Origin: a virus | Virus genome (UHGV): UHGV-0272533 | Direction: 5' to 3' (one strand) | DNA: 26,055 nt | Notes under the pieces: generated by a model | Told to the model about the DNA's origin: nothing | Database searches by the model: none | The model's input: the letters and a program-made list of their open reading frames with translations, nothing else | Part shown: positions 1 through 25,223 of the stretch, one piece after another | Layout: every line of letters starts with the position of its first letter | Position numbering within the stretch: position 1 is the first letter of the stretch | Made by a program: the position numbers and the translations under genes

Positions 1-23
1 TTTAATTATATTGTGAGGGCCGC

Positions 24-629
24 ATGATGAATAAAGCTGTATTAAATAGTGAACTCATTGCCATAAAAGCGGGAGACATTATCATTTATAATTATGATGG
101 CGAAACGCGGGAATATATTTCTACATCAACTGAATATCTCGCTGTCGGCGTCGGTATCCCGGCATGTTCCTGTCTGGATGCACCAGGTACACATAAAGCT
201 GGTTATGCAATCTGTCGCTCTGTAGATTTAAATTCATGGGAATATGTGCCAGACCATCGCGGTGAAGTTGTCTATAGTACCGAAACGGGAGATACCAAAG
301 AAATCACAGTTCCGGGTGATTACCCTGAAAATACAACCACTATCGCCCCATTAACGCCATACGATAAATGGGATGGTGAGAAATGGGTGACGGATACCGA
401 GGCACAGCATAGCGCCGCACTAGACGCGGCAGAAGCACAGCGCCAGTCACTGATTAATGCAGCAATGGCTTCCATTAGTCTGATTCAGCTGAAATTACAG
501 GCCGGACGGAAGTTGACGCAGGCAGAAACAACCCGACTTAACGCCGTGCTGGATTACATTGACGCGGTGACGGCAACAGATACCAGCACCGCGCCGGATG
601 TCATCTGGCCTGAACTGCCGGAGGCGTAG
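24..629 (+). CDS. Tail fibre assembly protein (Tfa-like), convergent with the minus-strand tfa
   Basis: 201 aa; ATG at 24 preceded by GAGGG. C-terminus (LNAVLDYIDAVTATDTSTAPDVIWPELP) is the typical Tfa C-terminal motif and is shared with the ORF at 601..1044. 3' ends of the two genes overlap at 601..629. Confidence 0.7.
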   Translation: MMNKAVLNSELIAIKAGDIIIYNYDGETREYISTSTEYLAVGVGIPACSCLDAPGTHKAGYAICRSVDLNSWEYVPDHRGEVVYSTETGDTKEITVPGDYPENTTTIAPLTPYDKWDGEKWVTDTEAQHSAALDAAEAQRQSLINAAMASISLIQLKLQAGRKLTQAETTRLNAVLDYIDAVTATDTSTAPDVIWPELPEA

Positions 630-1044
630 TCCATTCAATATCTGGCGCACTGGAAGTATCGACCATTTCCAGTGCGTCCAGATAATCCAGCCACAAATTA
701 TATTGCACCAGTTCCTCACCTTTCAGACGACCAATTGATGCTTTACCTGGCCATTGTTTACTGTTGATGTATTCGTTGGCCTGATTAATCAATTGCTGCT
801 TTTTAGTTTCGGCTGATGCAATTTGTTCTTCACGTGTTGGTGGAGGAATATCTGCCCATGCAGGCAGTCCATCCTCTCCGACACATCTGTATTTTCCTTC
901 TGGTGGTGTATCATAGAAATATTCCCTGAAAATTACTTCGTCTATATCAACACCTTTTTCTTCAGGCCACTCACCTTTTTCAACATAAAGAGACTGAAGT
1001 TCATAAGGATATGCTAGGTTGTTTACGTACAGATATTTCATCAT
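601..1044 (-). CDS. tfa: Tail fibre assembly protein (Tfa)
   Basis: 147 aa; start ATG overlaps the stop of the upstream tail fibre gene (TAATG at 1042..1046). C-terminal LWLDYLDALEMVDTSSAPDIEWTTPP motif is typical of lambda-type Tfa chaperones. Confidence 0.75.
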   Translation of the reverse strand: MMKYLYVNNLAYPYELQSLYVEKGEWPEEKGVDIDEVIFREYFYDTPPEGKYRCVGEDGLPAWADIPPPTREEQIASAETKKQQLINQANEYINSKQWPGKASIGRLKGEELVQYNLWLDYLDALEMVDTSSAPDIEWTTPPAVQAR

Positions 1045-1853
1045 TACCAGCCCTTAGCGAAAAACGCACCACCTTCAAGACCATAATTGCAGTGAGCTAT
1101 GAAGCCGGTAGTGCTCCAGTTGGTCGCCCCCCACATATTCCCGCCCCCGAAACCACCATCGAACACAATTACAATGCCCGGTGTATGTGTAAATGGAATC
1201 GGGAATGAAACATTGGCGGATACAGGCCCGAGTTCACCAGGAAAACTAATTCGTCCCCACTGTTCAATTGAACCATCTGGCATTTTTCGCCAGCCTGAAC
1301 CTGATGCATATGATGACATATCAGGTATCTGATTTTCCCCAGTTCCCACATTCCGTTTTGCCGCTTCTCCCAAACCAAGGTTTGTGCGAGCGTCTGCGGC
1401 ATTCGTTGCGCCGGTTCCGCCGTCTGCGACAGTAACCGCACCGTTGCTCCCTTTCTGTGCCAGTTTACCGATGCCAGGGATGGTTACGGTGGTCCCGTTG
1501 ATGGTAACGGTGATGGTCTGGTTTGCTGAGGTAGTGGCGAACGTCTCCCACGCGCCAATGTTCTCGTCATACTCTTTGATGAGCTGCGACATTGCCTGGG
1601 CCAGTCCGTCCACGGAGATAATGTCTGACACCAGAATGGCGTATTTCTGGCCGCTCAGCGCCGGGGAAGCGGCAGGCGTAACCGTCATTGACGTGGCGCT
1701 GTTCACGGATGAAATCTGGAACAGTTGCACCGGGTTAGACATCACGATAATTGTCTGGCCAGCGCGAACCTGGCTGGCCGGTGCCGTCCAGTTTGTACCC
1801 GTCCCGGTGGCGGTATTTCCATTAATGGCGATGGTGCCGGTGTTATAAAGCAT
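1044..1853 (-). CDS. Putative tail fibre protein (short, Gly/Thr/Asn-rich)
   Basis: ORF track begins at an alternative TTG at 1868. I prefer ATG at 1851..1853 ([12 protein letters not shown]...) with GGAG 5 nt upstream. Gly/Thr/Ser/Asn-rich composition and position directly upstream of, and coupled to, tfa. Confidence 0.55.
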
Positions 1854-1869
1854 ATTTTCTCCAGGCAAT

Positions 1870-1892
1870 AAAAAAACCCCGCCGGAGCGAGG
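1870..1892 (-). terminator. Rho-independent terminator downstream of the cor-like gene
   Basis: On the minus strand: CCUCGC-UCCG-GCGGGG stem-loop (6 bp including one G-U pair) followed by U7. Sits 22 nt after the lipoprotein stop at 1914. Confidence 0.5.
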
Positions 1893-1913
1893 TTTATGTT
1901 TAAGCGTAGTGGG

Positions 1914-2147
1914 TTATTTGCAGGTTGTTTCGGTAAATGTATTCGCACTTACCCAGCGCCAGCTGAAAGGATATCCAGCCCGGTACTGCGTCTGGTTGTT
2001 TTGTTTACGCACACCGTAAATCTGAACCGTAGTTTCCTGACCGCCAACGATTGCAGTGCCGCTGCAAACTGGTTCCTGTTTCTCAATTACGCCAGCGCAT
2101 CCTGTAAGCATGACAGCGCCTGCCATGCAGATAATCAGTTTTCTCAT
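1914..2147 (-). CDS. cor: Small lipoprotein, Cor-like (putative superinfection-exclusion protein)
   Basis: 77 aa; N-terminus MRKLIICMAGAVMLTGC has a basic n-region, hydrophobic core and lipobox L-T-G-C. Size and position downstream of J are as for Cor of phi80/N15-type phages (from memory; family assignment not verified). Confidence 0.55.
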   Translation of the reverse strand: MRKLIICMAGAVMLTGCAGVIEKQEPVCSGTAIVGGQETTVQIYGVRKQNNQTQYRAGYPFSWRWVSANTFTETTCK

Positions 2148-2204
2148 TTTGATAGTATCCAGAGGAATTCAGTATCTTAGACGATACCAATACAATTCTG
2201 GTGG

Positions 2205-2262
2205 GTATAATTGATTGGATAGATCAATATTATGTTATTGATCGCTAAAAACGATCAATCAA
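2205..2262 (-). promoter_or_regulatory. AT-rich regulatory region upstream of cor with palindromic ATTGATC/GATCAAT motifs and three GATC sites; candidate promoter
   Basis: GATC at 2222..2225, 2240..2243 and 2253..2256. Inverted repeat ATTGATCG(n7)CGATCAAT at 2237..2259 and TTGAT(n8)ATCAA at 2211..2228. On the minus strand, TTGATC (2253..2258), 18-nt spacer, CATAAT (2229..2234) resembles a sigma70 promoter. Confidence 0.3.
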
Positions 2263-2933
2263 TCATAGGCCGCTGTATTTATGGCGGTTAATGAAATGCC
2301 AGTATTCGTTCCCCCTACAGGTGAACCTGTCCCAGTGGAGGTCCCCCCTGCGTTTATCCTCGTATTGGCCCCGTCAAACCTGCATGAAGAATAAGCATTT
2401 ATCGTGTAGATAGTCGGAGGCTGGGTTGAATTATTCACAATGATGGTCTGACCCAACTGAGCAGGTGCAACGGCCCATGACCCGCTCAGCGTCTGGTCAA
2501 TATTTATCCCGCCGTTTGCACCAGGCGTGCCAACCGTCTGCAGGTCTGATAGCACACGGGACTCATTAGTTAACACAAGCTTTCCGCTCGCATCCCATAT
2601 TGCCAAACCCCATTTCGGTAATATCTGCGGGAATATGGCAAAAACGTACGCCGTTAAAGTGAAACTTTGGTTGTAGGGATTAACACCAACAACATACACA
2701 TTACCGCCGTTCCTGTAAGACATAACCGGAGTGGGCTGTGCTGTATTGGTGGTTTTGATAAAAACCATCACTGGGTAATCAGCGTTTAAAGCGATATTTT
2801 GAGCAACCTGCTGAGAACTGCCATTCGCGGATGAATTGAAGGTATACTTCCCGTAAAGACAGAAAGGCGTTGATTGTGGCGTTACAAAGGGATTCCCGTT
2901 ATCCATTAATATCATCGCGCCAAATTCGGCCAT
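2259..2933 (-). CDS. Hypothetical phage protein downstream of J (paralogous to the 2933..3235 product)
   Basis: 224 aa; ATG at 2933 overlaps the upstream stop (TAATG); GGAG 8 nt upstream. Contains AIWDASGKL, similar to IQTWDASGNP in the neighbouring ORF. Function unknown. Confidence 0.5.
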   Translation of the reverse strand: MAEFGAMILMDNGNPFVTPQSTPFCLYGKYTFNSSANGSSQQVAQNIALNADYPVMVFIKTTNTAQPTPVMSYRNGGNVYVVGVNPYNQSFTLTAYVFAIFPQILPKWGLAIWDASGKLVLTNESRVLSDLQTVGTPGANGGINIDQTLSGSWAVAPAQLGQTIIVNNSTQPPTIYTINAYSSCRFDGANTRINAGGTSTGTGSPVGGTNTGISLTAINTAAYD

Positions 2934-3235
2934 TATGCTTTCTCCATGAAAACGACCACCTCACATTTAGAGGCCGGGTAATTACCCAGGCCCACAGAAG
3001 AGGCTGCGGTTACGGTTATTGTGTTCCCTGACGCGACAATGCTCCTCCCTACGCTGTTACCTCCTTCATCAAGTGAGAGCGCAAAACCGACCTTCATTCC
3101 TGAGGGTACAGTGAAAGACCAGCTGCCGGAGTTTTGTCCGGCGGCAAGTTGTATACGTCCAACAACGGAAACGGGCTTGATTCCGTAGTTGTTGGGGTTT
3201 CCCGAAGCATCCCAGGTCTGTATTCCATAAGCCAT
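2933..3235 (-). CDS. Hypothetical phage protein downstream of J
   Basis: 100 aa; start ATG 2 nt after the J stop (TGATATG). Shares the WDASG motif with the next ORF. Function unknown. Confidence 0.5.
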   Translation of the reverse strand: MAYGIQTWDASGNPNNYGIKPVSVVGRIQLAAGQNSGSWSFTVPSGMKVGFALSLDEGGNSVGRSIVASGNTITVTAASSVGLGNYPASKCEVVVFMEKA

Positions 3236-3236
3236 A

Positions 3237-6200
3237 TCAGAACACCCCCGTTAATCGGCCAACCTGCACTCTCAGAACGTTGTTGCCATCCTTGACGCTG
3301 ATTGTCTGGTTGGTCTGCTTCATGGCTCCCTCCCCAGCTGTCGAACCGTAGTTCTCAAACGTCCCGGACTTATCCAGTTTCCAGCCAACAGAGCCGGCAA
3401 CATAATTGTTCGACTGGATGTAATTGCCAATTTTTGCATTGCTTATGGTCCCGTCGCCAATGACTGTATCCCTGATAATGGCCTGGCCATTCTGGATAAC
3501 GAACGGCAGTGTTACAGTCCCGCCGACCATAGTAGTCACGGCGAAACGGTCTGCCAGGAAGATTACCTGTGACTGCATGCCGGAGGGTGTATTTTGAACC
3601 CCAATACCCATCCCGGCAGCGTAATACTGCCCGTTACTGGACACCCCCACCTTGATGTTATACATCGCGCTGAGGTTACCGTTTACATCTGCTATAGCCT
3701 GTGCGTTGACGTTTATCGCTGCACTGTTTTCGCCTGATTTAACAGTCAGAGTGTTGATTTTTGTTGCCGAAGCCTGGGTGAAATCAGCAAGAGTTTCTGT
3801 CAGGTCCGTTGAGTTAGAGATATTGCCACCAGCTTCTGCATCCAGTGTGACCAGCGCGCGTGCGACCGCCTGGCTGGTATCGGCAATCGTAGTATCCACT
3901 CTGTCTATACTGGCACTGTTCCCGGCGTTTGTTGCTGTCTGGGAACGACGACTGACAACCTGCGCCAGCCCATTCTGGATTATCGCAATTGCCGAATTCT
4001 TCACGCCTCCTGTCATACCGTCCATTGAAACGGAAATCTCATCGATTTTTACCGCCGCCTGCGCCAGCCCGTCAGCGTTTTCCTGTATATCTTTCGCCTG
4101 CTGCTCCAGCTCGTCGGCATGGTTTTTGATTTCGTCAGCCATGCCAGCAATTTTTTCATTGCTGTCCACTGCGCTCTCAATCAGATCTTTAAACGTAGCG
4201 GAGTCTTTGATCTCCTCCAGGATCACATCGGTGATATCGGAAACATCGATGCTGGCCTGACCTCGCACCCAGTCGGTATACCCGGACTCGTTTCCCGTTC
4301 TGTCGACCAGTTGCGCGCGATACCAGAAAATCTGCCCTGCCTTAAGACCCATCTGCTGATATTTGCGCTGCGGATAAGGCACATCGGCCAGCAGCATTGC
4401 ATCATCTTCGCTACCGGTCAGGCTGTACTGAATTTCCGTCTTCAGCGTGTCTTCGGTATTCGCCGGGAATCCCCAGTTCAGCTCGATACCGAATACCACG
4501 TTTTCAGAAGCGATGAAGCCAACCGGCTTCGGTGGGTTTCCCACTTTACCCGTCAACGTTTTCTCTTCTGAATAGCCCCACCCAGATGAAATTTCGGCGG
4601 CATTGATGGCACGCACGCGAACCAGGTAGCGTCCTGCATAAATCCCCGGAACATCGAATGACGTGGTGGAGCTGCGCGGCACATTCACCCAGTTCCCGTC
4701 ATTGCGACGCCACTGTGCCTCATACGCGATAGCATTTTTCGCCTGGTCCCAGCTGACGCGCATGGTCTCAACGCTGATATTCTGCTGAACGACAGAAAAC
4801 GAACTGATCGCGATATTAGCTGGCGGGGACTGATTACCGGGCGGAATTACACTTATTGGCCGCTGGTCGACGATGGCGCCGGTATCGATACGGGCATACT
4901 TATCCGGATCGTGAAAAGCACCAGTAATAGAAAACGTGCCGTCGTTATTATCAGAGACGCTGATAACACGATATTGCTGTGCATAAAGCTCGTCGGATTC
5001 GACAATCCATACCGATTCGACTGCCGGTGTTTCGCTGTATGCCGTGGTCACGGTGACAGCCCGGCCGTTTACGCTCTGAATCGTCCTGCTCTGCGATGCG
5101 CCAGACGGCAGGTTAACCATAAGACGGCTTCCGGCAACGGCAGCGGAATCACGATCAAGCGTGATAACGCGACCATTAACCGCGCTGATACGCCCTCCCA
5201 TCACCTTTCCGGATAACAGCTCATCGGCAACCGCGATAATATAACCAGGCTGTGGAATGTTGCCGTCCAGACCAACATCAAACGATACGATGCGATCCTT
5301 GTTATTGGTCTGAATCCCCCAGCGCCCCTTACGGTTTGCCTCAGACTGCCGGGTACAGCCAATGGCTGTCATCTCGAGCTGGTTTGTGCCAAAGCGAGCG
5401 ACGAGCTCCTGTTCAAAAACCGGCTCCATCGCATCTGCGTAGGCATTACCCGGATCTGACCAGGAAACCAGCGCGGTGGTATAGCGGTTTTTAGTGGTGC
5501 TGCCAGAATAGGTAAAGCGGCCGTCAACCACGTTAGCGCGGGTGTAGCTGTAATCAACATCGCGGGGCATATCTGCCAGTGCAACGATTTGATTGCCGCC
5601 CCAGTACGTCATGCCACGGAATATCGCCGCAAAATCACGTAACACGGTATAGGCGTCATTCCTCTCCTGCACGTACACGTTACAGGTATAGCGAGGCTCG
5701 GTGCCGCTACCGCCTTTACCATCAGGAACCAGCTGATCGCAATATTGTGCGACCTGGTAAAGCGTCCATTTATCAATATTTGCCGCCGTCAGGCGGTCGC
5801 CAAGTCCAAAACGGTCGCTCACCACCAGATCGTAAAAAATCCACGCCGGATTGTCCGTCCATGCCCACTTAAACGCCCCCGTCCAGGTACCGCTATAGGT
5901 CCGGGTTTCCGGATCGTAAGTATCCGGCACGCGGATAACGCGCCCGCGCGGTTCACAGGAAATTTGCGGGATGGAGCCGTTAAACTGGCTTGAATCGAAT
6001 TCAATGTACAGCAGCGCGGTGTTTGGATAGCGCAGTTTGGCATCGATTACCTCCGTGTAGCTCTGCAGCGTCATCGTGTCGCCAATTTTCGCACTGTTCG
6101 CATCTGCGGTGAGCTTACGAAGACGTACCGTCCAGGTGCTTCCCGCCTGCGGTAAGTCGATACGGTGGCTGCGTTCGTAGCCTGACGTGGTTTTCCCGGT

Positions 6201-6692
6201 GACGCTGGTATTAAGCACGGTCTGCCAGGTACCGCCATCTGTCTGCAGATCGATAGCGTAATTAATCGAATAGCCGACCAGATCGCCGTCGTCCTCCTGT
6301 TTAAACAGTGATGGCCATTTGAGGCGCAGACGAATGGCTGACAGCTGGGTGTTGGTAAAGGTATGCGTCCAGGCCGTAGCGCTTGAAACTTCGGTACCTA
6401 CGCTGATTTCATTCTCGGTACCGGGGATGCCCTGAATATACTTTTGAGCCTGAGTCCCCGGGCGGAACTCCCATGCCACGCCGCTGAAGTTTTGCGATCC
6501 GTCTGCATTCTCCAGTGGCGTGCCGTCAAGATAGATATCTTTAGCCGTTAACTGCCCCGCAAATTCCCCTTCTCCCAGCGCAACAAGAATCTTGGCCTTC
6601 GCTACGGACTGGAGATCGTCTGGCTGTTCTGTAGGGGTACGGGAACTGGAACTGCCGCCCTTGCGGCCTCTAATCGGAGTGGAAGTAGCCAT
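3237..6692 (-). CDS. J: Tail tip / host specificity protein J
   Basis: 1151 aa, ATG at 6692. Central region has recognisable similarity to lambda gpJ (e.g. ...YTCNVYVQERNDAYTVLRDFAAIFRGMTYW...). The C-terminal end (...VLRVQVGRLTGVF) differs from lambda's. Confidence 0.9.
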   Translation of the reverse strand: MATSTPIRGRKGGSSSSRTPTEQPDDLQSVAKAKILVALGEGEFAGQLTAKDIYLDGTPLENADGSQNFSGVAWEFRPGTQAQKYIQGIPGTENEISVGTEVSSATAWTHTFTNTQLSAIRLRLKWPSLFKQEDDGDLVGYSINYAIDLQTDGGTWQTVLNTSVTGKTTSGYERSHRIDLPQAGSTWTVRLRKLTADANSAKIGDTMTLQSYTEVIDAKLRYPNTALLYIEFDSSQFNGSIPQISCEPRGRVIRVPDTYDPETRTYSGTWTGAFKWAWTDNPAWIFYDLVVSDRFGLGDRLTAANIDKWTLYQVAQYCDQLVPDGKGGSGTEPRYTCNVYVQERNDAYTVLRDFAAIFRGMTYWGGNQIVALADMPRDVDYSYTRANVVDGRFTYSGSTTKNRYTTALVSWSDPGNAYADAMEPVFEQELVARFGTNQLEMTAIGCTRQSEANRKGRWGIQTNNKDRIVSFDVGLDGNIPQPGYIIAVADELLSGKVMGGRISAVNGRVITLDRDSAAVAGSRLMVNLPSGASQSRTIQSVNGRAVTVTTAYSETPAVESVWIVESDELYAQQYRVISVSDNNDGTFSITGAFHDPDKYARIDTGAIVDQRPISVIPPGNQSPPANIAISSFSVVQQNISVETMRVSWDQAKNAIAYEAQWRRNDGNWVNVPRSSTTSFDVPGIYAGRYLVRVRAINAAEISSGWGYSEEKTLTGKVGNPPKPVGFIASENVVFGIELNWGFPANTEDTLKTEIQYSLTGSEDDAMLLADVPYPQRKYQQMGLKAGQIFWYRAQLVDRTGNESGYTDWVRGQASIDVSDITDVILEEIKDSATFKDLIESAVDSNEKIAGMADEIKNHADELEQQAKDIQENADGLAQAAVKIDEISVSMDGMTGGVKNSAIAIIQNGLAQVVSRRSQTATNAGNSASIDRVDTTIADTSQAVARALVTLDAEAGGNISNSTDLTETLADFTQASATKINTLTVKSGENSAAINVNAQAIADVNGNLSAMYNIKVGVSSNGQYYAAGMGIGVQNTPSGMQSQVIFLADRFAVTTMVGGTVTLPFVIQNGQAIIRDTVIGDGTISNAKIGNYIQSNNYVAGSVGWKLDKSGTFENYGSTAGEGAMKQTNQTISVKDGNNVLRVQVGRLTGVF

Positions 6693-6703
6693 ATTGCGCC
6701 CAT

Positions 6704-6726
6704 AAAAAAGCCACCCTGAGGTGGCC
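6704..6726 (-). terminator. Terminator-like hairpin between I and J
   Basis: Minus strand: GCCACC-UCAG-GGUGGC stem-loop followed by UUUUUU, 14 nt upstream of the J start codon. Confidence 0.4.
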
Positions 6727-6742
6727 TGAAAGAAGGTTTTAT

Positions 6743-7333
6743 TTACTGCTGATCTTCGACATATATCCCGGCAGAAATAATCGCACCGCCGATTCGCCGG
6801 CGACCATAAAGAAGTGGTACCGGGTAGCCCTGCGCAGCGGTGTTTGTGACCCCGCCAAACGCGTAGGAGGCGCGGTTATCAGAGCTTTGTTTGCTGGCCA
6901 GACCTGCTGGTTGAGGGGAAAGCATCTGGACAACGCCGCCCAGCATGACTGCGGCACCAAGTTTGTAGAAGAATGGTGAAGCCGCAGCCCAGGGCGTGAA
7001 ATTAAGAACCACACCGACAGCAACCAGAACCGCACCTAAAATAGTCTGTAGTACACCCGCTTTTTTACTCCCGATAATGACCGGGACAATGCGGATAACA
7101 TCGCCGGTGACCGGGAAGCCAAGGTCATCAACACCAATATTCTTTTTCCCTTTGAATACGGAATAAGTGAGCCCACGGCGCTGGCTGGAGATCATAAACT
7201 GCTCAAATCCCGGAACCGTCTTTGCCAGCGCAACACTCGCCTCGTTAACGCGGGAAATCAGGCGGTGGTGAACTTTACCGAACGTTTTGCCGAGCACGCC
7301 GCCAAGCTCAATGCGGCTCATGACTTCCTGCAT
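6743..7333 (-). CDS. I: Tail assembly protein I
   Basis: 196 aa; position between K and J; hydrophobic C-terminal half as in lambda gpI; start overlaps the K 3' end. Confidence 0.8.
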   Translation of the reverse strand: MQEVMSRIELGGVLGKTFGKVHHRLISRVNEASVALAKTVPGFEQFMISSQRRGLTYSVFKGKKNIGVDDLGFPVTGDVIRIVPVIIGSKKAGVLQTILGAVLVAVGVVLNFTPWAAASPFFYKLGAAVMLGGVVQMLSPQPAGLASKQSSDNRASYAFGGVTNTAAQGYPVPLLYGRRRIGGAIISAGIYVEDQQ

Positions 7334-8052
7334 GATTCATTCCCCCTTAAATCTTTATAGCGAACGATTTTCATCGTGCGCTCCTGCCAGTATCCGCCAT
7401 AAGGAACACGCTGACTCAGATGCCCGTAAAGATGGTGCAGCAGCATGTTACCCTCCAGTAAAATCCCGGCATGATTCCACTTATCGGCCTGCACCTGCAT
7501 GATGACCAGATCGCCTTCCTGAGGCGGGCCGTCAAACTCCCTGAATCCGCACTCGTACCAGCAGTCCTGATAGAAGTTGTCCGGATAGCTGTTCTCCCAC
7601 CAGGGATAATCGACGCGGTAATCATGGAGTTCGATGCCGTGGGTCTGCCGGAAATAGCTCATTACCAGCCCCCAGCAATCGAAGTGGCCAAGCACGAACG
7701 GGCGCTCCAGCAGCGGCAGTTCCCCGCGCGGCTGAATAGTGCGTAAATCCCCCTCCGGCCAGCTCACAATATGCCAGGGCAGCAGCGTTGCATCACATTG
7801 CGCCTTATCAAGCTCGCTGGCCTGCGTCGTCGCGTCAGGGTGGCTGTGAACAATGGCTACCACCGTCCCCCAGTCTTCGGCAGCTGCGTAGTCTTCGGGA
7901 GAAAGGTGAAAATGTTCTGTCGGCTCTTCAGAAAGGTTGCGGCAGGGGAAATAACGCTCAACCCGGCTTTTCTGCGCCACCACGCCGCAGCACTCTCGCG
8001 GGTATTCCGCAGCGGCATGCACCATGATGGCATCAATGGTTTTCTGACGCAT
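7318..8052 (-). CDS. K: Tail assembly protein K (JAB/MPN-like plus NlpC/P60-like)
   Basis: Start placed at ATG 8050..8052 (MRQKTIDAIMVHAAAEYPRECCGVV...), 1 nt after the L stop. The longer ORF back to 8115 would overlap L by 62 nt. Contains the HSHP motif. Confidence 0.85.
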   Translation of the reverse strand: MRQKTIDAIMVHAAAEYPRECCGVVAQKSRVERYFPCRNLSEEPTEHFHLSPEDYAAAEDWGTVVAIVHSHPDATTQASELDKAQCDATLLPWHIVSWPEGDLRTIQPRGELPLLERPFVLGHFDCWGLVMSYFRQTHGIELHDYRVDYPWWENSYPDNFYQDCWYECGFREFDGPPQEGDLVIMQVQADKWNHAGILLEGNMLLHHLYGHLSQRVPYGGYWQERTMKIVRYKDLRGNESCRKS

Positions 8053-22311: not shown

Positions 22312-23049
22312 TTAACTAACTTTGAATTGAGCAGCTATCAATGAATAATCATCGGTGGGTGTTTTCTTTAAAATACGTTTATACAAACTTGCAGTGAAGC
22401 TACTAACATTACCAAGCGTATTCAAAGAAAAACGAGGTCGATGCTCCCAGAAATGATGTGCACCATCAGACATAATGAAAAGTGTAAGCACTCCGTTATC
22501 GTCTACTATATCAGCCAGTGGCAAAACTACATGCTGATACCGTATCGTCAAACTGCGAGTTAACGCCGCAGTAAGAGTATTCTTTCCTGGCAATTGCTCA
22601 AGCTCTTTTTTAGTATAAAGGCCGTCGTCCAAAAGTTCTTGATGCTGAGTATGGTCCTTTGTGACAAGATTAAGTTTGCCGCCCTTCTTAATGTAAACTC
22701 TGGTATCGCCAACATGAATCACATTCAATTCTTTAGCTGTTAAGAAACAATAAGAAAGAGTTGTTGCCGCTTTAAAATATTCATTATTTAAATTAGACAA
22801 TGCAATAATGTTATTTTGTATTAGCTCCAATGTGAGCTGTGGGTTTAACAATTTTTCTTTATTGAGTTCAGCAAGTTGACTAGTTGCTATATTCGCAGCA
22901 TCTTTGGCTCCAGGATAAGAACCAACGCCATCCGCAACAGCAAAAACAAATGCCCCATCCACTTGCCGAGGTAGCAATATCGCATCTTGATTGTCATGCT
23001 CTACATTTTTTGAGCATGAGAATGCTGCGCAACTCAACAAATTAATCAT
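22312..23049 (-). CDS. PP2C-family (PPM) Ser/Thr protein phosphatase
   Basis: 245 aa; acidic metal-ligand motifs in PP2C order: ED (17-18), AVADGVGS (DG 40-41), GDTR (114-117), SDG (194-196), TDD (232-234). Start ATG overlaps the kinase stop (ATGA). AT-rich codon usage. Confidence 0.7.
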   Translation of the reverse strand: MINLLSCAAFSCSKNVEHDNQDAILLPRQVDGAFVFAVADGVGSYPGAKDAANIATSQLAELNKEKLLNPQLTLELIQNNIIALSNLNNEYFKAATTLSYCFLTAKELNVIHVGDTRVYIKKGGKLNLVTKDHTQHQELLDDGLYTKKELEQLPGKNTLTAALTRSLTIRYQHVVLPLADIVDDNGVLTLFIMSDGAHHFWEHRPRFSLNTLGNVSSFTASLYKRILKKTPTDDYSLIAAQFKVS

Positions 23050-23825
23050 TGCATTGTCCTCGCTATAACACTGTCTAAATCACTGAGCATCTGAGTGACT
23101 GAATCGAATCTAGCATTTGGGACATATGCTGTAGATCTATCCACAATTGCCCCAATCCCGGGAGCATCTTTTAGGTTTAATTCATTTATAATTACACCCA
23201 AAGCATAAATATCTGATTTTTCGGTATATGTCCCACGCTGTGCTTCTGGTGACATGTATTCAGGTGTGCCTATGCCAATTGAACGATCCTGCAAAATATT
23301 TGAAAGAAATGCTGATTGAGCTTCAGAGTTAATTGTCTTAACAAGCCCAAAATCTGAGATTTTATAGCAACCATCAGGGTACATGAGAATATTTTCCGGT
23401 TTCAAATCTCGATGCAAGTAACCATTCCTATGTATGTATTCAACTCCCTTTAGGACCATCCTGAGCATTTCAAGCTTATCGCGTTCAGTCAACACACCTT
23501 CGTTCATCTGTTTACGGAGGTCACATTCAGCTAGTTCCATAACAAACCATGGGTTATCGATGCTAAGATGATGTATGCATACAGGTACAACATTGTCATG
23601 CGTACACTCAGCTTGATACCTGACTTCACGTTCAAATCTTCGCTTCCAATCGTCCAAAGAAAAGAGGTGGTTGATAAGCTTGGGATTCACAGAAAGGACC
23701 TTCCTTGCGTAGAAGCCGCTGAAATGGCCTAACGTATTATAGACTTCAACCTTTTCAACCCGTCCAAAGGTTCCTTGACCCAATTCATCAATCGGTTTGA
23801 TTAAATAATTCCCTCTAGGATCCAT
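23046..23825 (-). CDS. Hanks-type (eukaryotic-like) Ser/Thr protein kinase, minimal catalytic domain
   Basis: 259 aa; Gly-rich loop GQGTFG (16-21), AxK Lys42, catalytic loop HRDLKPEN (138-145), DFG (158-160), activation segment GTPEYMSPE (186-194), DIYALG (205-210). AT-rich relative to flanking genes. Confidence 0.8.
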   Translation of the reverse strand: MDPRGNYLIKPIDELGQGTFGRVEKVEVYNTLGHFSGFYARKVLSVNPKLINHLFSLDDWKRRFEREVRYQAECTHDNVVPVCIHHLSIDNPWFVMELAECDLRKQMNEGVLTERDKLEMLRMVLKGVEYIHRNGYLHRDLKPENILMYPDGCYKISDFGLVKTINSEAQSAFLSNILQDRSIGIGTPEYMSPEAQRGTYTEKSDIYALGVIINELNLKDAPGIGAIVDRSTAYVPNARFDSVTQMLSDLDSVIARTMQ

Positions 23826-23936: not shown

Positions 23937-24428
23937 TTAATCTCTTAAAGAGTTGTAGATACGCTCACATATCATTCCTGCGCGGTAGCTGTCATCAGAT
24001 CGCCCAGCATAGTATCTAGCTTCTTCTGCAATGCTTCCGAGCATGTCGGCGAGCATTGCGGAGTTAGCGCTGGTTGTTTTGCTTCCGACGGCAGCGGCAA
24101 GACCTGCGGTGTGCTTTGCGGCGTCCAGGCGGGTGGCAAGTTTTGTTGCTTCGGTGCGCAGCTGGCTAACAGTGGCAGACAGGCCAGCAGCATTCGCAGC
24201 CGCTTTTGCAGCCTGTTCTTGTGCATTTTTAACAGCCTCATCGCGAGCGATTACTCGCCCTTGTTCAATCATACGAGCTGCGGTCTGTGCATTCGCTTCC
24301 TGTGAAGATTCCGCGCTATCCCGGTCAGCCCACTTTATTTTCCAGCTGCGGTTCGTCCACTCACTGCCAGCGAGAAACGAACCTACCAACGCAACAATCA
24401 CAATGATGCAGATGCCACCCGGCTTCAC
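23937..24428 (-). CDS. Rz: Rz-like inner-membrane spanin (i-spanin)
   Basis: Start placed at GTG 24426..24428 overlapping the endolysin stop (GTGA), with GGGGGA upstream. The ORF is open back to 24521, so the start is uncertain. N-terminal TM segment ([16 protein letters not shown]), then Ala/Gln-rich coiled-coil region. Confidence 0.55.
23972..24241 (-). CDS. Rz1: Rz1-like outer-membrane lipoprotein spanin embedded in Rz in another frame
   Basis: Embedded ORF; lipoprotein signal with lipobox LASC (...[15 protein letters not shown]), followed by a Pro-rich mature region. True start may be the Met at 24224..24226. Confidence 0.55.
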
Positions 24429-24973
24429 TGGTCTATCCCCCAGCACGTCAGTGCGCTTTCCTGGTCCCGCCGTTCTACCTGCCCATAACATCCATCCTTC
24501 TGGCCCTTGGTCAGGCGGCAATCGCGGCCACCGTCTTTAATCCACCAGCGGATAGCTTCACAGGCTCCTTTCGTATCGCCAGCATTAATTCGCTTATAGA
24601 ACGTAGACGGGAAACATTTTCCGGGGCCGATGTTATATGGGCAGAAAGAAGCGATACCCGCTTTCTGTGGTTCGGTCAGTGGTACTTTGATATTTCGGTC
24701 AACCCACGCCAGCGCCTTGTCGCGTTCAATGGCGTTTACCTGGGCGCATTTCTCAGCTGACAGCTTCATGCCCTGTACTACTGGCTTGCCATCAACCATT
24801 GTTGCACCACGGCAAATGGTCCAGAGTCCGCCGCCGTCGCGATATGCTGTCAAGCTGTTACCCTCTTTCTCATCCAGAAACTGATCGAGAATCACGGGTG
24901 CGGAAGCCCCGGCAAGAATCAAACCAACGACCGCTGCGCTCAATTTATTCTTCAGCTTTAGAGACATAGCCAT
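24425..24973 (-). CDS. R: SAR endolysin (T4-lysozyme-family muramidase with N-terminal signal-anchor-release domain)
   Basis: 182 aa; N-terminal Gly/Ala-rich weakly hydrophobic segment ([19 protein letters not shown]); E...D...T catalytic spacing in [25 protein letters not shown]; overlaps the holin 3' end. Confidence 0.8.
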
Positions 24974-25223
24974 TGCGCCGATCCTCCCGTTCTTTCCAGC
25001 GGAAATACCAGTTCACTGCACAGGTGATTACCGTGCATGCGATACCGACAATAATTGCCCAGTCGCTCAGGCTTAACCCTGCAATTCTGTCGGCCAACAT
25101 CCAGGACACCTCTTTTGCTGTTTTAGCTGTTTCGGCATATGCCTTCGCTGATACACCGCAGCCGGTCAGCGTGGTTCCTGTTCCATATGAAAGTCTGCTG
25201 TAAATGGTGCTCATTCTGGTCAT
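24945..25223 (-). CDS. S: Putative holin
   Basis: 92 aa; ATG at 25223 with strong SD GGAGGTG; two hydrophobic segments and a charged C-terminus (KEREDRRNG); first gene of the lysis cassette. Confidence 0.6.
   Translation of the reverse strand: MTRMSTIYSRLSYGTGTTLTGCGVSAKAYAETAKTAKEVSWMLADRIAGLSLSDWAIIVGIACTVITCAVNWYFRWKEREDRRNGYVSKAEE

Follow-up and report, generated by a model that had tools for sequence, protein, structure and literature searches.

The window analyzed here, the whole 26,055-nucleotide stretch of viral DNA designated UHGV virus genome UHGV-0272533, carries on its minus strand a gene for the tail tip protein J, followed by two small genes (ORF100 and ORF224), the lipoprotein gene cor and the start of a side tail fibre gene. 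The features of this region are the following:

3237..6692, minus strand: J, tail tip or central fibre protein, 1151 aa, from the open reading frame and its translation
4269..4325, minus strand: recombination junction within J, at residues ~790-808, with a change from N15-like to phi80-like DNA, located by blastn
3309..3716, minus strand: Phage_Tail_Tip (PF09327), the conserved central straight-fibre domain, J residues 993-1128 (Pfam, E 8e-48)
3237..3700, minus strand: J residues ~998-1151 and the stop codon (PHROG 31, 'central tail fiber J')
3240..3458, minus strand: terminal tip, J residues 1079-1151 (...GTFENYGSTAGEGAMKQTNQTISVKDGNNVLRVQVGRLTGVF), predicted docking platform, from homology to phi80/T1-type tips and DEV gp56
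2933..3235, minus strand: ORF100 (100 aa), homologous to gp22 of phi80 and gp22 of N15 (PHROG 557), predicted small beta-sandwich
2259..2933, minus strand: ORF224 (224 aa), homologous to gp23 of phi80 and gp23 of N15 (PHROG 425), candidate FhuA-binding protein
2229..2258, minus strand: promoter-like site before cor, TTGATC-18-CATAAT, a consensus match only, the count of such sites being no higher than expected in shuffled sequence
1914..2147, minus strand: cor, outer-membrane lipoprotein with lipobox LTGC (NCBIfam NF047972, PHROG 1119, signal peptide)
1874..1895, minus strand: intrinsic terminator after cor, a 9-bp GC-rich stem and T run, also annotated in phi80 and mEp237
1438..4325, minus strand: phi80-type host-range cassette, comprising the C-terminal ~360 aa of J, ORF100, ORF224, cor and the beginning of the gene for the side tail fibre (blastn, gene order, aa identity)

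The J protein shares with lambda J (PDB 8iyk, 8xcj) a homologous tail-tip hub, FNIII domains and a central straight fibre, and contains the Pfam domains FNIII-A_GpJ (PF24801), Phage-tail_3 (PF13550) and Phage_Tail_Tip (PF09327). Positions 3237-3700 encode its last 154 residues; the C-terminal end reads ...VLRVQVGRLTGVF, and the 1151-aa translation closes with ...NVLRVQVGRLTGVF. An earlier note on this DNA, made from the sequence, had claimed that this end differs from that of lambda J, and the alignments bear this out. When the last 300 residues were compared with lambda J by BLASTP, only J 988-1078 could be aligned (lambda 840-930, 26% identity), and the same lambda stretch was recovered by phmmer from the lambda J chains in the PDB; within the C-terminal third of J, this only lambda-alignable part falls in the central straight-fibre domain. 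The NCBIfam model lambda_TipJ (NF049904) aligned J 13-1078 with model positions 4-956 of 1163, so that the last ~200 positions of the model (957-1163) are unmatched, and J scored 529 bits where the cut-off is 1950. No fused lambda-type LamB-binding C-terminal domain is present, that is, BLASTP, phmmer and the lambda_TipJ model yielded no counterpart in J of lambda J residues ~931-1132. The last 250 residues are instead 100% identical to J of mEp237, 92.8% to phi80 gp21 and 72% to J of HK022. The two loci also differ downstream: in lambda J is followed by lom, whereas in the window ORF100, ORF224 and cor occupy this place and no lom is found there.

The description of the J body as lambda-like, also made in the earlier note, has to be revised because the homology to lambda is only distant (aa identity of 16-58% in bins of 50 residues) and the body is N15/HK97-like; no nucleotide match to lambda was detected within window 1-8000. 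In 50-residue bins, residues 1-800 are mostly 90-100% identical to J of N15, HK022 and HK97, with a few lower bins, the identity to N15 J dropping to 68-82% over residues 701-800. The same residues are only 38-68% identical to the J body of phi80. At the nucleotide level, blastn matched window 4269-8000 to N15 at 90.6% and window 1438-4325 to phi80 at 87.5%. Thus, J is a mosaic, with a hub and proximal fibre of the N15/HK022/HK97 type in residues 1-~800 and a distal fibre of the phi80 type in residues ~800-1151.

The phi80-type block spans ~2.9 kb, with the J end as its first element, and its proteins are 93-100% identical in amino acid sequence to those of phi80. In phi80 (JX871397), ORF100, ORF224 and Cor have counterparts with 94%, 93% and 100% identity, respectively; in mEp237 (JQ182730), the corresponding values are 100%, 99% and 100%. 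The gene order J - gp22 - gp23 - cor is common to the window, phi80, mEp237 and N15. The mEp237 genome is 97% identical at the nucleotide level over window 1372-21958, and the distal part of its side tail fibre diverges leftwards from ~1370; an inverted-repeat search detected no second crossover site of a tail-fibre inversion segment inside the window. All three sequence marks of the phi80/T1-type FhuA cassette are found here, namely a short J tip, genes of PHROGs 557 and 425, and an adjacent cor.

The start codon of ORF100 lies 1 nt past the J stop codon, and that of ORF224 overlaps the ORF100 stop codon (TAATG). In RefSeq and most phage records the two products are labelled 'hypothetical protein', and in PHROGs and some records 'outer membrane / membrane associated protein'. 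The protein sequences do not bear out these labels. No signal peptide or membrane segment was predicted in either ORF100 or ORF224, the maximum Kyte-Doolittle 19-residue mean is 1.14-1.18 compared with 2.02 for Cor, and both look like soluble virion-type proteins. The AlphaFold2 models have a pLDDT of 81 for ORF100 and 90.6 for ORF224, the latter being a confidently predicted all-beta fold. Foldseek found no PDB match at E<=0.001 for the ORF100 model, its weak top matches being to the C-terminal sandwich of the Sf6 tailspike (TM 0.37-0.41), and no PDB relative of the ORF224 model, which in BFVD matched only uncharacterised phage proteins. The ORF100-type protein has been claimed to resemble the lambda J receptor-binding domain (PMC12309495); we did not retain ORF100 as a lambda-J-like Ig domain, no lambda J domain being present among the Foldseek top 50. 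The possibility that ORF100 is a duplicated domain of ORF224 was rejected as well, since hhalign gave only a shared 12-residue motif and not domain homology. Phmmer and profile searches with ORF100, ORF224, Cor and Litunavirus gp54 yielded nothing among PDB sequences. ORF224 did show a relationship to a 204-aa protein from FritzSarasin, which uses BtuB (hhalign probability 90%).

The presence of cor, already proposed in the earlier note, is confirmed: the product is identical to phi80 Cor in 77 of 77 residues and scores 140.9 bits against NF047972, with a cut-off of 31. For phi80 Cor it is established that the protein inactivates FhuA as a phage receptor, and full exclusion by cloned cor alone has been reported in the literature. 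The 111-nt spacer between ORF224 and cor holds the promoter-like site. In lytic FhuA phages, cor is found on the opposite strand, and the homologues of ORF100 and ORF224 stay co-oriented with J.

The suggestion that the receptor may be FhuA rather than LamB was assessed by comparing 15 phages, of which 7 depend on FhuA and 7 use other receptors, the remaining one being mEp237, with receptor assignments taken from the BASEL S5 table, PMC13164509 and PMC3594210. ORF100, ORF224 and Cor occur together in all seven FhuA phages (phi80, N15, HK022, T1, JulesPiccard, JakobBernoulli and GeorgBuechner) and in mEp237, for which no receptor was found in the open-text literature. They are present in none of the seven phages with other receptors, namely lambda and HK97 (LamB), AugustePiccard and TheodorHerzl (LptD), FritzSarasin (BtuB), IsaakIselin (YncD) and DanielBernoulli (TolC). 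Given this distribution, FhuA, not LamB, is the likely receptor of this uncharacterised E. coli prophage, a call made from sequence that agrees with the earlier suggestion. That the cassette goes with FhuA use had been published before (PMC8594841; PMC13164509). The same tip (72-78% identity), genes for ~100-aa and ~224-aa proteins and a Cor lipoprotein make up the FhuA type of what is termed the 'bona fide RBP locus' in T1 and the BASEL phages (Wietzorrek 2006; Maffei 2021, PMC8594841; PMC13164509); in these lytic phages cor is inverted, the two ORFs are 53-73% identical to the window proteins and Cor is 34-40% identical.

Which protein of the cassette touches FhuA depends on the role of the J tip. 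J ends, with no further domain, in a short tip of the form ...GTFENYG...LRVQ(V/I)GR(L/I)TG. The best PDB match of the J end is T1 gp33 (E 1.7e-53), and no match to the J ends of lambda, HK97 or the TolC type was detected for the tip. The tip is 93% identical in phi80 and HK022, 72-77% in T1, JulesPiccard and JakobBernoulli, and still 69% in FritzSarasin, which uses BtuB. Over the last 45-73 residues, J of the YncD phage is 51-59% identical to that of the prophage, and JakobBernoulli (FhuA) and the related FritzSarasin are 67-83% identical to each other. Altogether, the tip turned up in 1293 phage records, those of phages of Pseudomonas, Burkholderia and Ralstonia among them, and ORF100 and ORF224 in ~350. 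This spread across receptors and hosts speaks against the claim in the earlier note that the C-terminal end of J is the receptor-binding part, and also against the explanation, which we consider improbable, that the tip itself binds FhuA and ORF100 and ORF224 are assembly chaperones or accessory factors. In favour of that explanation, homologues of J are annotated as 'host specificity protein', and the J proteins of GeorgBuechner (FhuA) and TheodorHerzl (LptD) share 98-100% identity up to the last ~60 aa, which track the receptor class; JulesPiccard and AugustePiccard show the same switch, and HK022 and HK97 an analogous one. Because these residues switch together with the downstream module, the tip may share directly in receptor contact. 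A tip-FhuA loop interface has also been modelled, albeit with low confidence, high PAE and an implausible geometry (PMC12309495). Taken together with the suppressor mutations of phage DEV described below, which lie outside the fibre, the spread of the tip indicates that the J end is probably not the receptor-binding part; we propose that the tip would serve as a docking platform for the downstream proteins rather than as a lambda-type receptor-binding domain, and receptor specificity more likely resides in the 224-aa, and possibly also the 100-aa, protein.

A module of similar organization, gp56-gp55-gp54, is known from the Pseudomonas phage DEV (PMC12892993; PDB 9ze4), whose J-like beta-helical fibre end is homologous to the J tip of the window (9ze4_N residues 369-427, E 4.5e-6; 46.6% identity for the Litunavirus matches). 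In the Litunavirus operon the fibre gene is followed by genes for 99 aa and 223 aa, compared with 100 and 224 aa in the window, and in DEV the stop and start codons overlap as they do here. Unlike the prophage, DEV is a podovirus with a laterally mounted 429-aa fibre, has no cor and uses LptD, bound by gp54, instead of FhuA; its small proteins are only ~15-26% identical to those of the window. Using small family alignments, hhalign linked the ORF224 family to gp54-like proteins (probability 84.5%, E 6.9e-6, 138 columns) and the ORF100 family to gp55-like proteins (73%, E 3.1e-5); comparisons with single Litunavirus sequences were uninformative, and phmmer and Foldseek gave no support for gp54/gp55 homology, both proteins being absent from the PDB. 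With moderate confidence, ORF100 and ORF224 may be regarded as remote homologues of gp55 and gp54, respectively. The DEV virion contains gp54, which is, according to suppressor genetics, the receptor-binding protein, the suppressor mutations mapping to gp54 and not to the fibre; the genes for gp56, gp55 and gp54 are all essential (PMC12892993).

The reading that we favour, with a probability of roughly 70%, combines a mosaic J with a phi80-type tip, an FhuA cassette in which ORF224 and ORF100 on the tip bind FhuA, and Cor, which shuts FhuA. The trimeric J tip would be the docking platform; ORF224, aided by ORF100, would attach to it and bind the FhuA outer-membrane transporter, as we infer from the homology to DEV gp56-gp55-gp54 and from published AlphaFold models of homologues; and in the lysogen Cor, from its own promoter-terminator unit, would close FhuA to phages belonging to its own receptor class. 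The best candidate for the FhuA binder is the 224-aa protein docked on the J tip. AlphaFold2-Multimer favours a 23-kDa 'hand-like' homologue that caps the J trimer and binds FhuA (PMC12309495), the models being of the Dhillonvirus JLBYU60 homologues.

A quite different role for the small proteins has been proposed in PMC13164509, with ORF100 and ORF224 as envelope proteins that aid Cor in superinfection exclusion and FhuA recognition located elsewhere. The membrane-protein names and 'moron' category of PHROGs 557 and 425 fit this proposal, as does the constant company of the three genes, which together track FhuA use. It is nevertheless hard to reconcile with the lack of signal peptides and hydrophobic segments in both proteins, with the low membrane affinity computed for homologues (PMC12309495) and with the translational coupling of both ORFs to J and not to cor, a gene set apart by a spacer and a terminator of its own and inverted in lytic phages, where the ORFs stay with J. 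Together with the presence of DEV gp54 in the virion and the need for both DEV genes in plaque formation, this makes the proposal quite improbable. We assign even less weight to a drift of the cassette, despite its phi80 ancestry, to another receptor, such as a different TonB-dependent transporter or OmpC. ORF224 and phi80 gp23 do differ at ~7% of residues, FritzSarasin uses a homologous scaffold to bind BtuB, and OmpC is used by some lambdoid phages of the mEp series. However, no residue differs between Cor and its FhuA-specific counterpart in phi80, and ORF224 homologues with as little as 53-66% identity (T1, N15, BASEL) are still found in FhuA phages, so such a drift appears very improbable.

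The preferred reading, with ORF224 and ORF100 on the J tip, can be extended beyond this prophage, at what we regard as about even odds. The ORF224-type 'hand' might be the true receptor binder in phages of the phi80/T1/N15/HK022 type, one copy together with an ORF100 adaptor capping the J trimer; binders of FhuA, BtuB and perhaps YncD would be variants of one scaffold on a shared tip, and the same three-gene module would extend to Pseudomonas N4-like podoviruses. If so, receptor recognition in phi80 does not lie with the 'host specificity protein J' itself. The name is a probable misnomer in this very common class of siphophages, and the two small genes that follow J are the ones to consult in predicting or engineering host range.

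Since the J tip belongs to a well-known FhuA-marking cassette, the deviation of the J end from lambda is a correct but ordinary finding, confirmed and already known, with nothing new to specialists: the link between cassette and FhuA appeared in papers of 2006, 2021 and 2026, and the idea of a separate binder in papers of 2021, 2025 and 2026. A comparable arrangement is seen in T5, where, as reported in PMC9586334, a separate monomeric protein, pb5, on the tip of the trimeric central fibre pb4 binds FhuA, and the small lipoprotein Llp blocks FhuA afterwards. The T5 system works like the proposed combination of J tip, ORF224 and Cor; in PDB searches neither ORF224 nor ORF100 showed similarity to pb5 in sequence or fold. 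The lysogen is predicted to resist, through Cor, infection by T1, phi80 and T5-class phages as well as colicin M, and to take up less ferrichrome.

The window corresponds to the late genes of an E. coli lambdoid prophage. mEp237 shares 97% DNA identity with positions 1372-21958. The block 1900-4200 is matched in 62 of 5426 genomes, and the complete E. coli genomes that match best carry it in chromosomal prophages at 98-99.9% identity. Given the Pfam domains FNIII-A_GpJ, Phage-tail_3 and Phage_Tail_Tip in its 1151-aa product, the long ORF of this region encodes the J-type tail-tip or central-fibre protein; its C-terminus, ...NVLRVQVGRLTGVF, reads as the earlier note had it. The genes considered here are:

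3237..6692, minus strand: J, 1151 aa
2933..3235, minus strand: ORF100 (100 aa), 94% identity to phi80 gp22
2259..2933, minus strand: ORF224 (224 aa), 93% identity to phi80 gp23
1914..2147, minus strand: cor, lipoprotein with lipobox LTGC, identical to phi80 Cor at 77/77 residues (NCBIfam equivalog, 140.9 bits)

The departure of the J C-terminus from lambda, claimed previously, is borne out. A BLASTP comparison of the last 300 residues aligned a single stretch, lambda J 840-930 with J 988-1078 (26% identity), and a phmmer search of lambda J chains with solved structures recovered the same lambda segment. In the NCBIfam model lambda_TipJ, positions 4-956 (of 1163) align with J 13-1078 at 529 bits, where the cut-off is 1950, so that J lacks a counterpart of lambda's last ~200 residues, in which the LamB-binding domain lies; in their place J has 73 residues (1079-1151, hereafter the tip). 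The accompanying description of a lambda-like body holds only for a distant homologue (16-58% identity per 50-residue bin); to N15, HK022 and HK97, residues 1-800 are mostly 90-100% identical, with a few bins lower (N15 drops to 68-82% over residues 701-800). Window 1-8000 has no nucleotide match to lambda.

The last 250 residues of J are 100% identical to mEp237, 92.8% to phi80 gp21, about 92% to HK140, mEpX2, HK446 and mEp234, and 72% to HK022. Phi80-like DNA (1438 to 4325, 87.5% identity) meets N15-like DNA (4269 to 8000, 90.6%), which locates a recombination junction within J, at residues ~790-808. The phi80-like block also contains everything downstream of J, namely ORF100, ORF224, cor and the terminator after cor, in the gene order of phi80, mEp237 and N15. 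Among close relatives J varies most in the distal fibre's predicted helical shaft (residues ~850-1000, 3690-4145; identity 98-100% to phi80, 40-64% to HK022 and HK97, 10-32% to N15). Side fibres attach at the equivalent shaft in F-type pyocin (PMC13455828); the variability might track side-fibre type.

Among 15 phages compared, with receptors assigned from the BASEL S5 table, PMC13164509 and PMC3594210, homologues of ORF100, ORF224 and Cor were found in the published FhuA-dependent phages phi80, N15, HK022, T1, JulesPiccard, JakobBernoulli and GeorgBuechner, and also in mEp237; they were absent from lambda and HK97 (LamB), AugustePiccard and TheodorHerzl (LptD), FritzSarasin (BtuB), IsaakIselin (YncD) and DanielBernoulli (TolC). 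This reproduces published associations (PMC8594841; PMC13164509). Cor of phi80, N15 and HK022 inactivates FhuA (PMC3594210), and FhuA use predominates in the mEp lambdoid collection. Given the association and the identical Cor, the receptor is expected to be FhuA and is very unlikely to be LamB; the cassette is very probably of the FhuA rather than the LamB type. Of the earlier suggestion that the receptor is FhuA or another protein instead of LamB, the FhuA part is thus favored, and drift of the receptor to another protein appears highly improbable.

The J end itself is probably not the receptor-binding part, contrary to what had been assumed, as the tip is common to FhuA, BtuB and YncD phages. 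Its last 75 residues turn up in 1293 phage records, among them phages of Klebsiella, Pseudomonas, Ralstonia, Burkholderia and Vibrio, compared with 346 for ORF100 and 350 for ORF224. Tip identity is 93% in phi80 and HK022, 72-77% in T1, N15, JulesPiccard and JakobBernoulli, 69% in FritzSarasin and 59% in IsaakIselin; J of JakobBernoulli and FritzSarasin are 90% identical despite different receptors (FhuA vs BtuB), with only scattered differences in the tip. The last ~60 residues and the genes downstream nevertheless change in concert: between GeorgBuechner (FhuA) and TheodorHerzl (LptD), J identity is 98-100% up to this segment and 26-32% within it, and JulesPiccard and AugustePiccard show the same late switch. 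Direct binding of FhuA by the tip is an unlikely reading; on the simplest one, the tip offers a docking surface that fits one class of binder, encoded by a gene of its own. HK022 (FhuA) and HK97 (LamB) J are about 100% identical up to ~residue 1140, after which a ~155-residue extension replaces the short tip in HK97, which lacks ORF100, ORF224 and cor; the pair is a natural example of separately encoded vs fused receptor modules on the same fibre.

In the Pseudomonas phage DEV, gp56 ends in a homologue of the tip (PDB 9ze4_N, E 4.5e-6). Litunaviruses have genes of 99 aa and 223 aa after that of the fibre (429 aa, E 3.6e-279 to 9ze4_N), their stop and start codons overlapping, and in Pseudomonas siphophages J is likewise followed by ~95-120 aa and ~220 aa genes. 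Profile-profile comparison links the ORF224 family to gp54-like proteins (probability 84.5%, E 6.9e-6, 138 collinear columns) and the ORF100 family to gp55-like proteins (73%, E 3.1e-5, 76 columns); the controls came out as expected, in that crossed pairs share a 12-16-residue motif alone, and the LptD-type 311-aa protein scores 0.3%, by which it is unrelated to the ORF224-type family. In DEV, each of the genes for gp56, gp55 and gp54 is essential; gp54 is a virion protein and its mutations suppress a receptor (LptD) defect, from which it follows that the gp56 fibre carries gp54 as its receptor-binding protein (PMC12892993). In independent work, AlphaFold2-Multimer favored an arrangement in which the 23-kDa 'hand-like' homologue caps the J trimer and binds FhuA, and a related phage has a ~21-kDa virion band (PMC12309495). 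The BtuB-type locus encodes a 204-aa protein (FritzSarasin 4882-5496, minus strand) that is homologous to the ORF224 family over its whole length (90%, E 1.6e-6, 197 columns), consistent with the common tip of FhuA and BtuB phages. The binders for the TonB-dependent transporters FhuA, BtuB and YncD may thus be one diverged family.

We therefore favor, with a probability of about 0.6, ORF224 as the binder and the tip as its dock. Trimeric J would combine a hub of N15/HK97 type with a distal fibre of phi80 type presenting the conserved tip, on which ORF224, with ORF100, would dock and bind FhuA; Cor would block FhuA after lysogenisation. The proposal that ORF100 and ORF224 are exclusion factors (PMC13164509) seems improbable. 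Both are translationally coupled to J (junctions TGA-T-ATG for J/ORF100 and TAATG for ORF100/ORF224); cor is set apart by a 111-nt spacer that includes a promoter-like site, and ends in a terminator of its own. In lytic FhuA phages the homologues stay with J and cor is on the opposite strand. Unlike Cor, neither ORF100 nor ORF224 has a signal peptide or hydrophobic segment, which is at odds with the names 'outer membrane' and 'membrane associated' protein that databases give them.

AlphaFold2 models ORF100 as a small beta-sandwich (pLDDT 81) and ORF224 as a confident all-beta fold (90.6); neither has a relative in the PDB, and in BFVD ORF224 resembles only uncharacterised phage proteins, one from an N4-like Pseudomonas phage. 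The two share a 12-residue motif, (Y/W)G(I/L)xxWDAxG(N/K) (hhalign E 7.9e-5), at ORF100 residues 2-13 (3197-3232) and ORF224 residues 107-118 (2578-2613). It recurs, identically placed, in the gp55-like and gp54-like proteins of Pseudomonas phages and in those of the BtuB and YncD loci, the latter a 101-aa then 217-aa pair (IsaakIselin 5506-6473, minus strand). Model confidence is low around the ORF100 copy (pLDDT 53-61), and the ORF224 copy coincides with the only internal dip of its model (81-88). The motif may form the strand docking on the J tip.

The window itself holds nothing new, as the J end is identical to that of a sequenced phage and the cassette is that of phi80; its link to FhuA has already been published, as has the idea of a separate binder. 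The apparent remote homologies of phi80 gp22/gp23 to DEV gp55/gp54, and of the 'hand' proteins of FhuA and BtuB type to each other, are modest additions to these suggestions.

Other features of the window are:

24-629, plus strand, and 601-1044, minus strand: tfa genes (Caudo_TAP tail-fibre-assembly) facing each other, the plus copy 93% identical to HK97 tfa
1372-1383: hix-like core AAACCAAGGTTT, single copy (0.04 expected by chance)
22312-23825, minus strand: eukaryote-like Ser/Thr protein kinase (259 aa, Pkinase E 1.9e-36) and PP2C phosphatase (245 aa), overlapping stop/start codons
23937-24521, 24425-24973 and 24945-25223: lysis cassette (DUF2514, lysozyme and holin, respectively)

The side tail fibre region (1-1870) looks like a Gin/Hin/Pin-type invertible segment, the hix-like core lying inside the fibre gene exactly where mEp237 similarity ends. 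The second crossover site would be located to the left of the window, as would any invertase; a pin-type invertase lies nearby in phi80 and mEp237. The kinase/phosphatase pair, between the lysis cassette and the Nu1 terminase gene, is moron-like.
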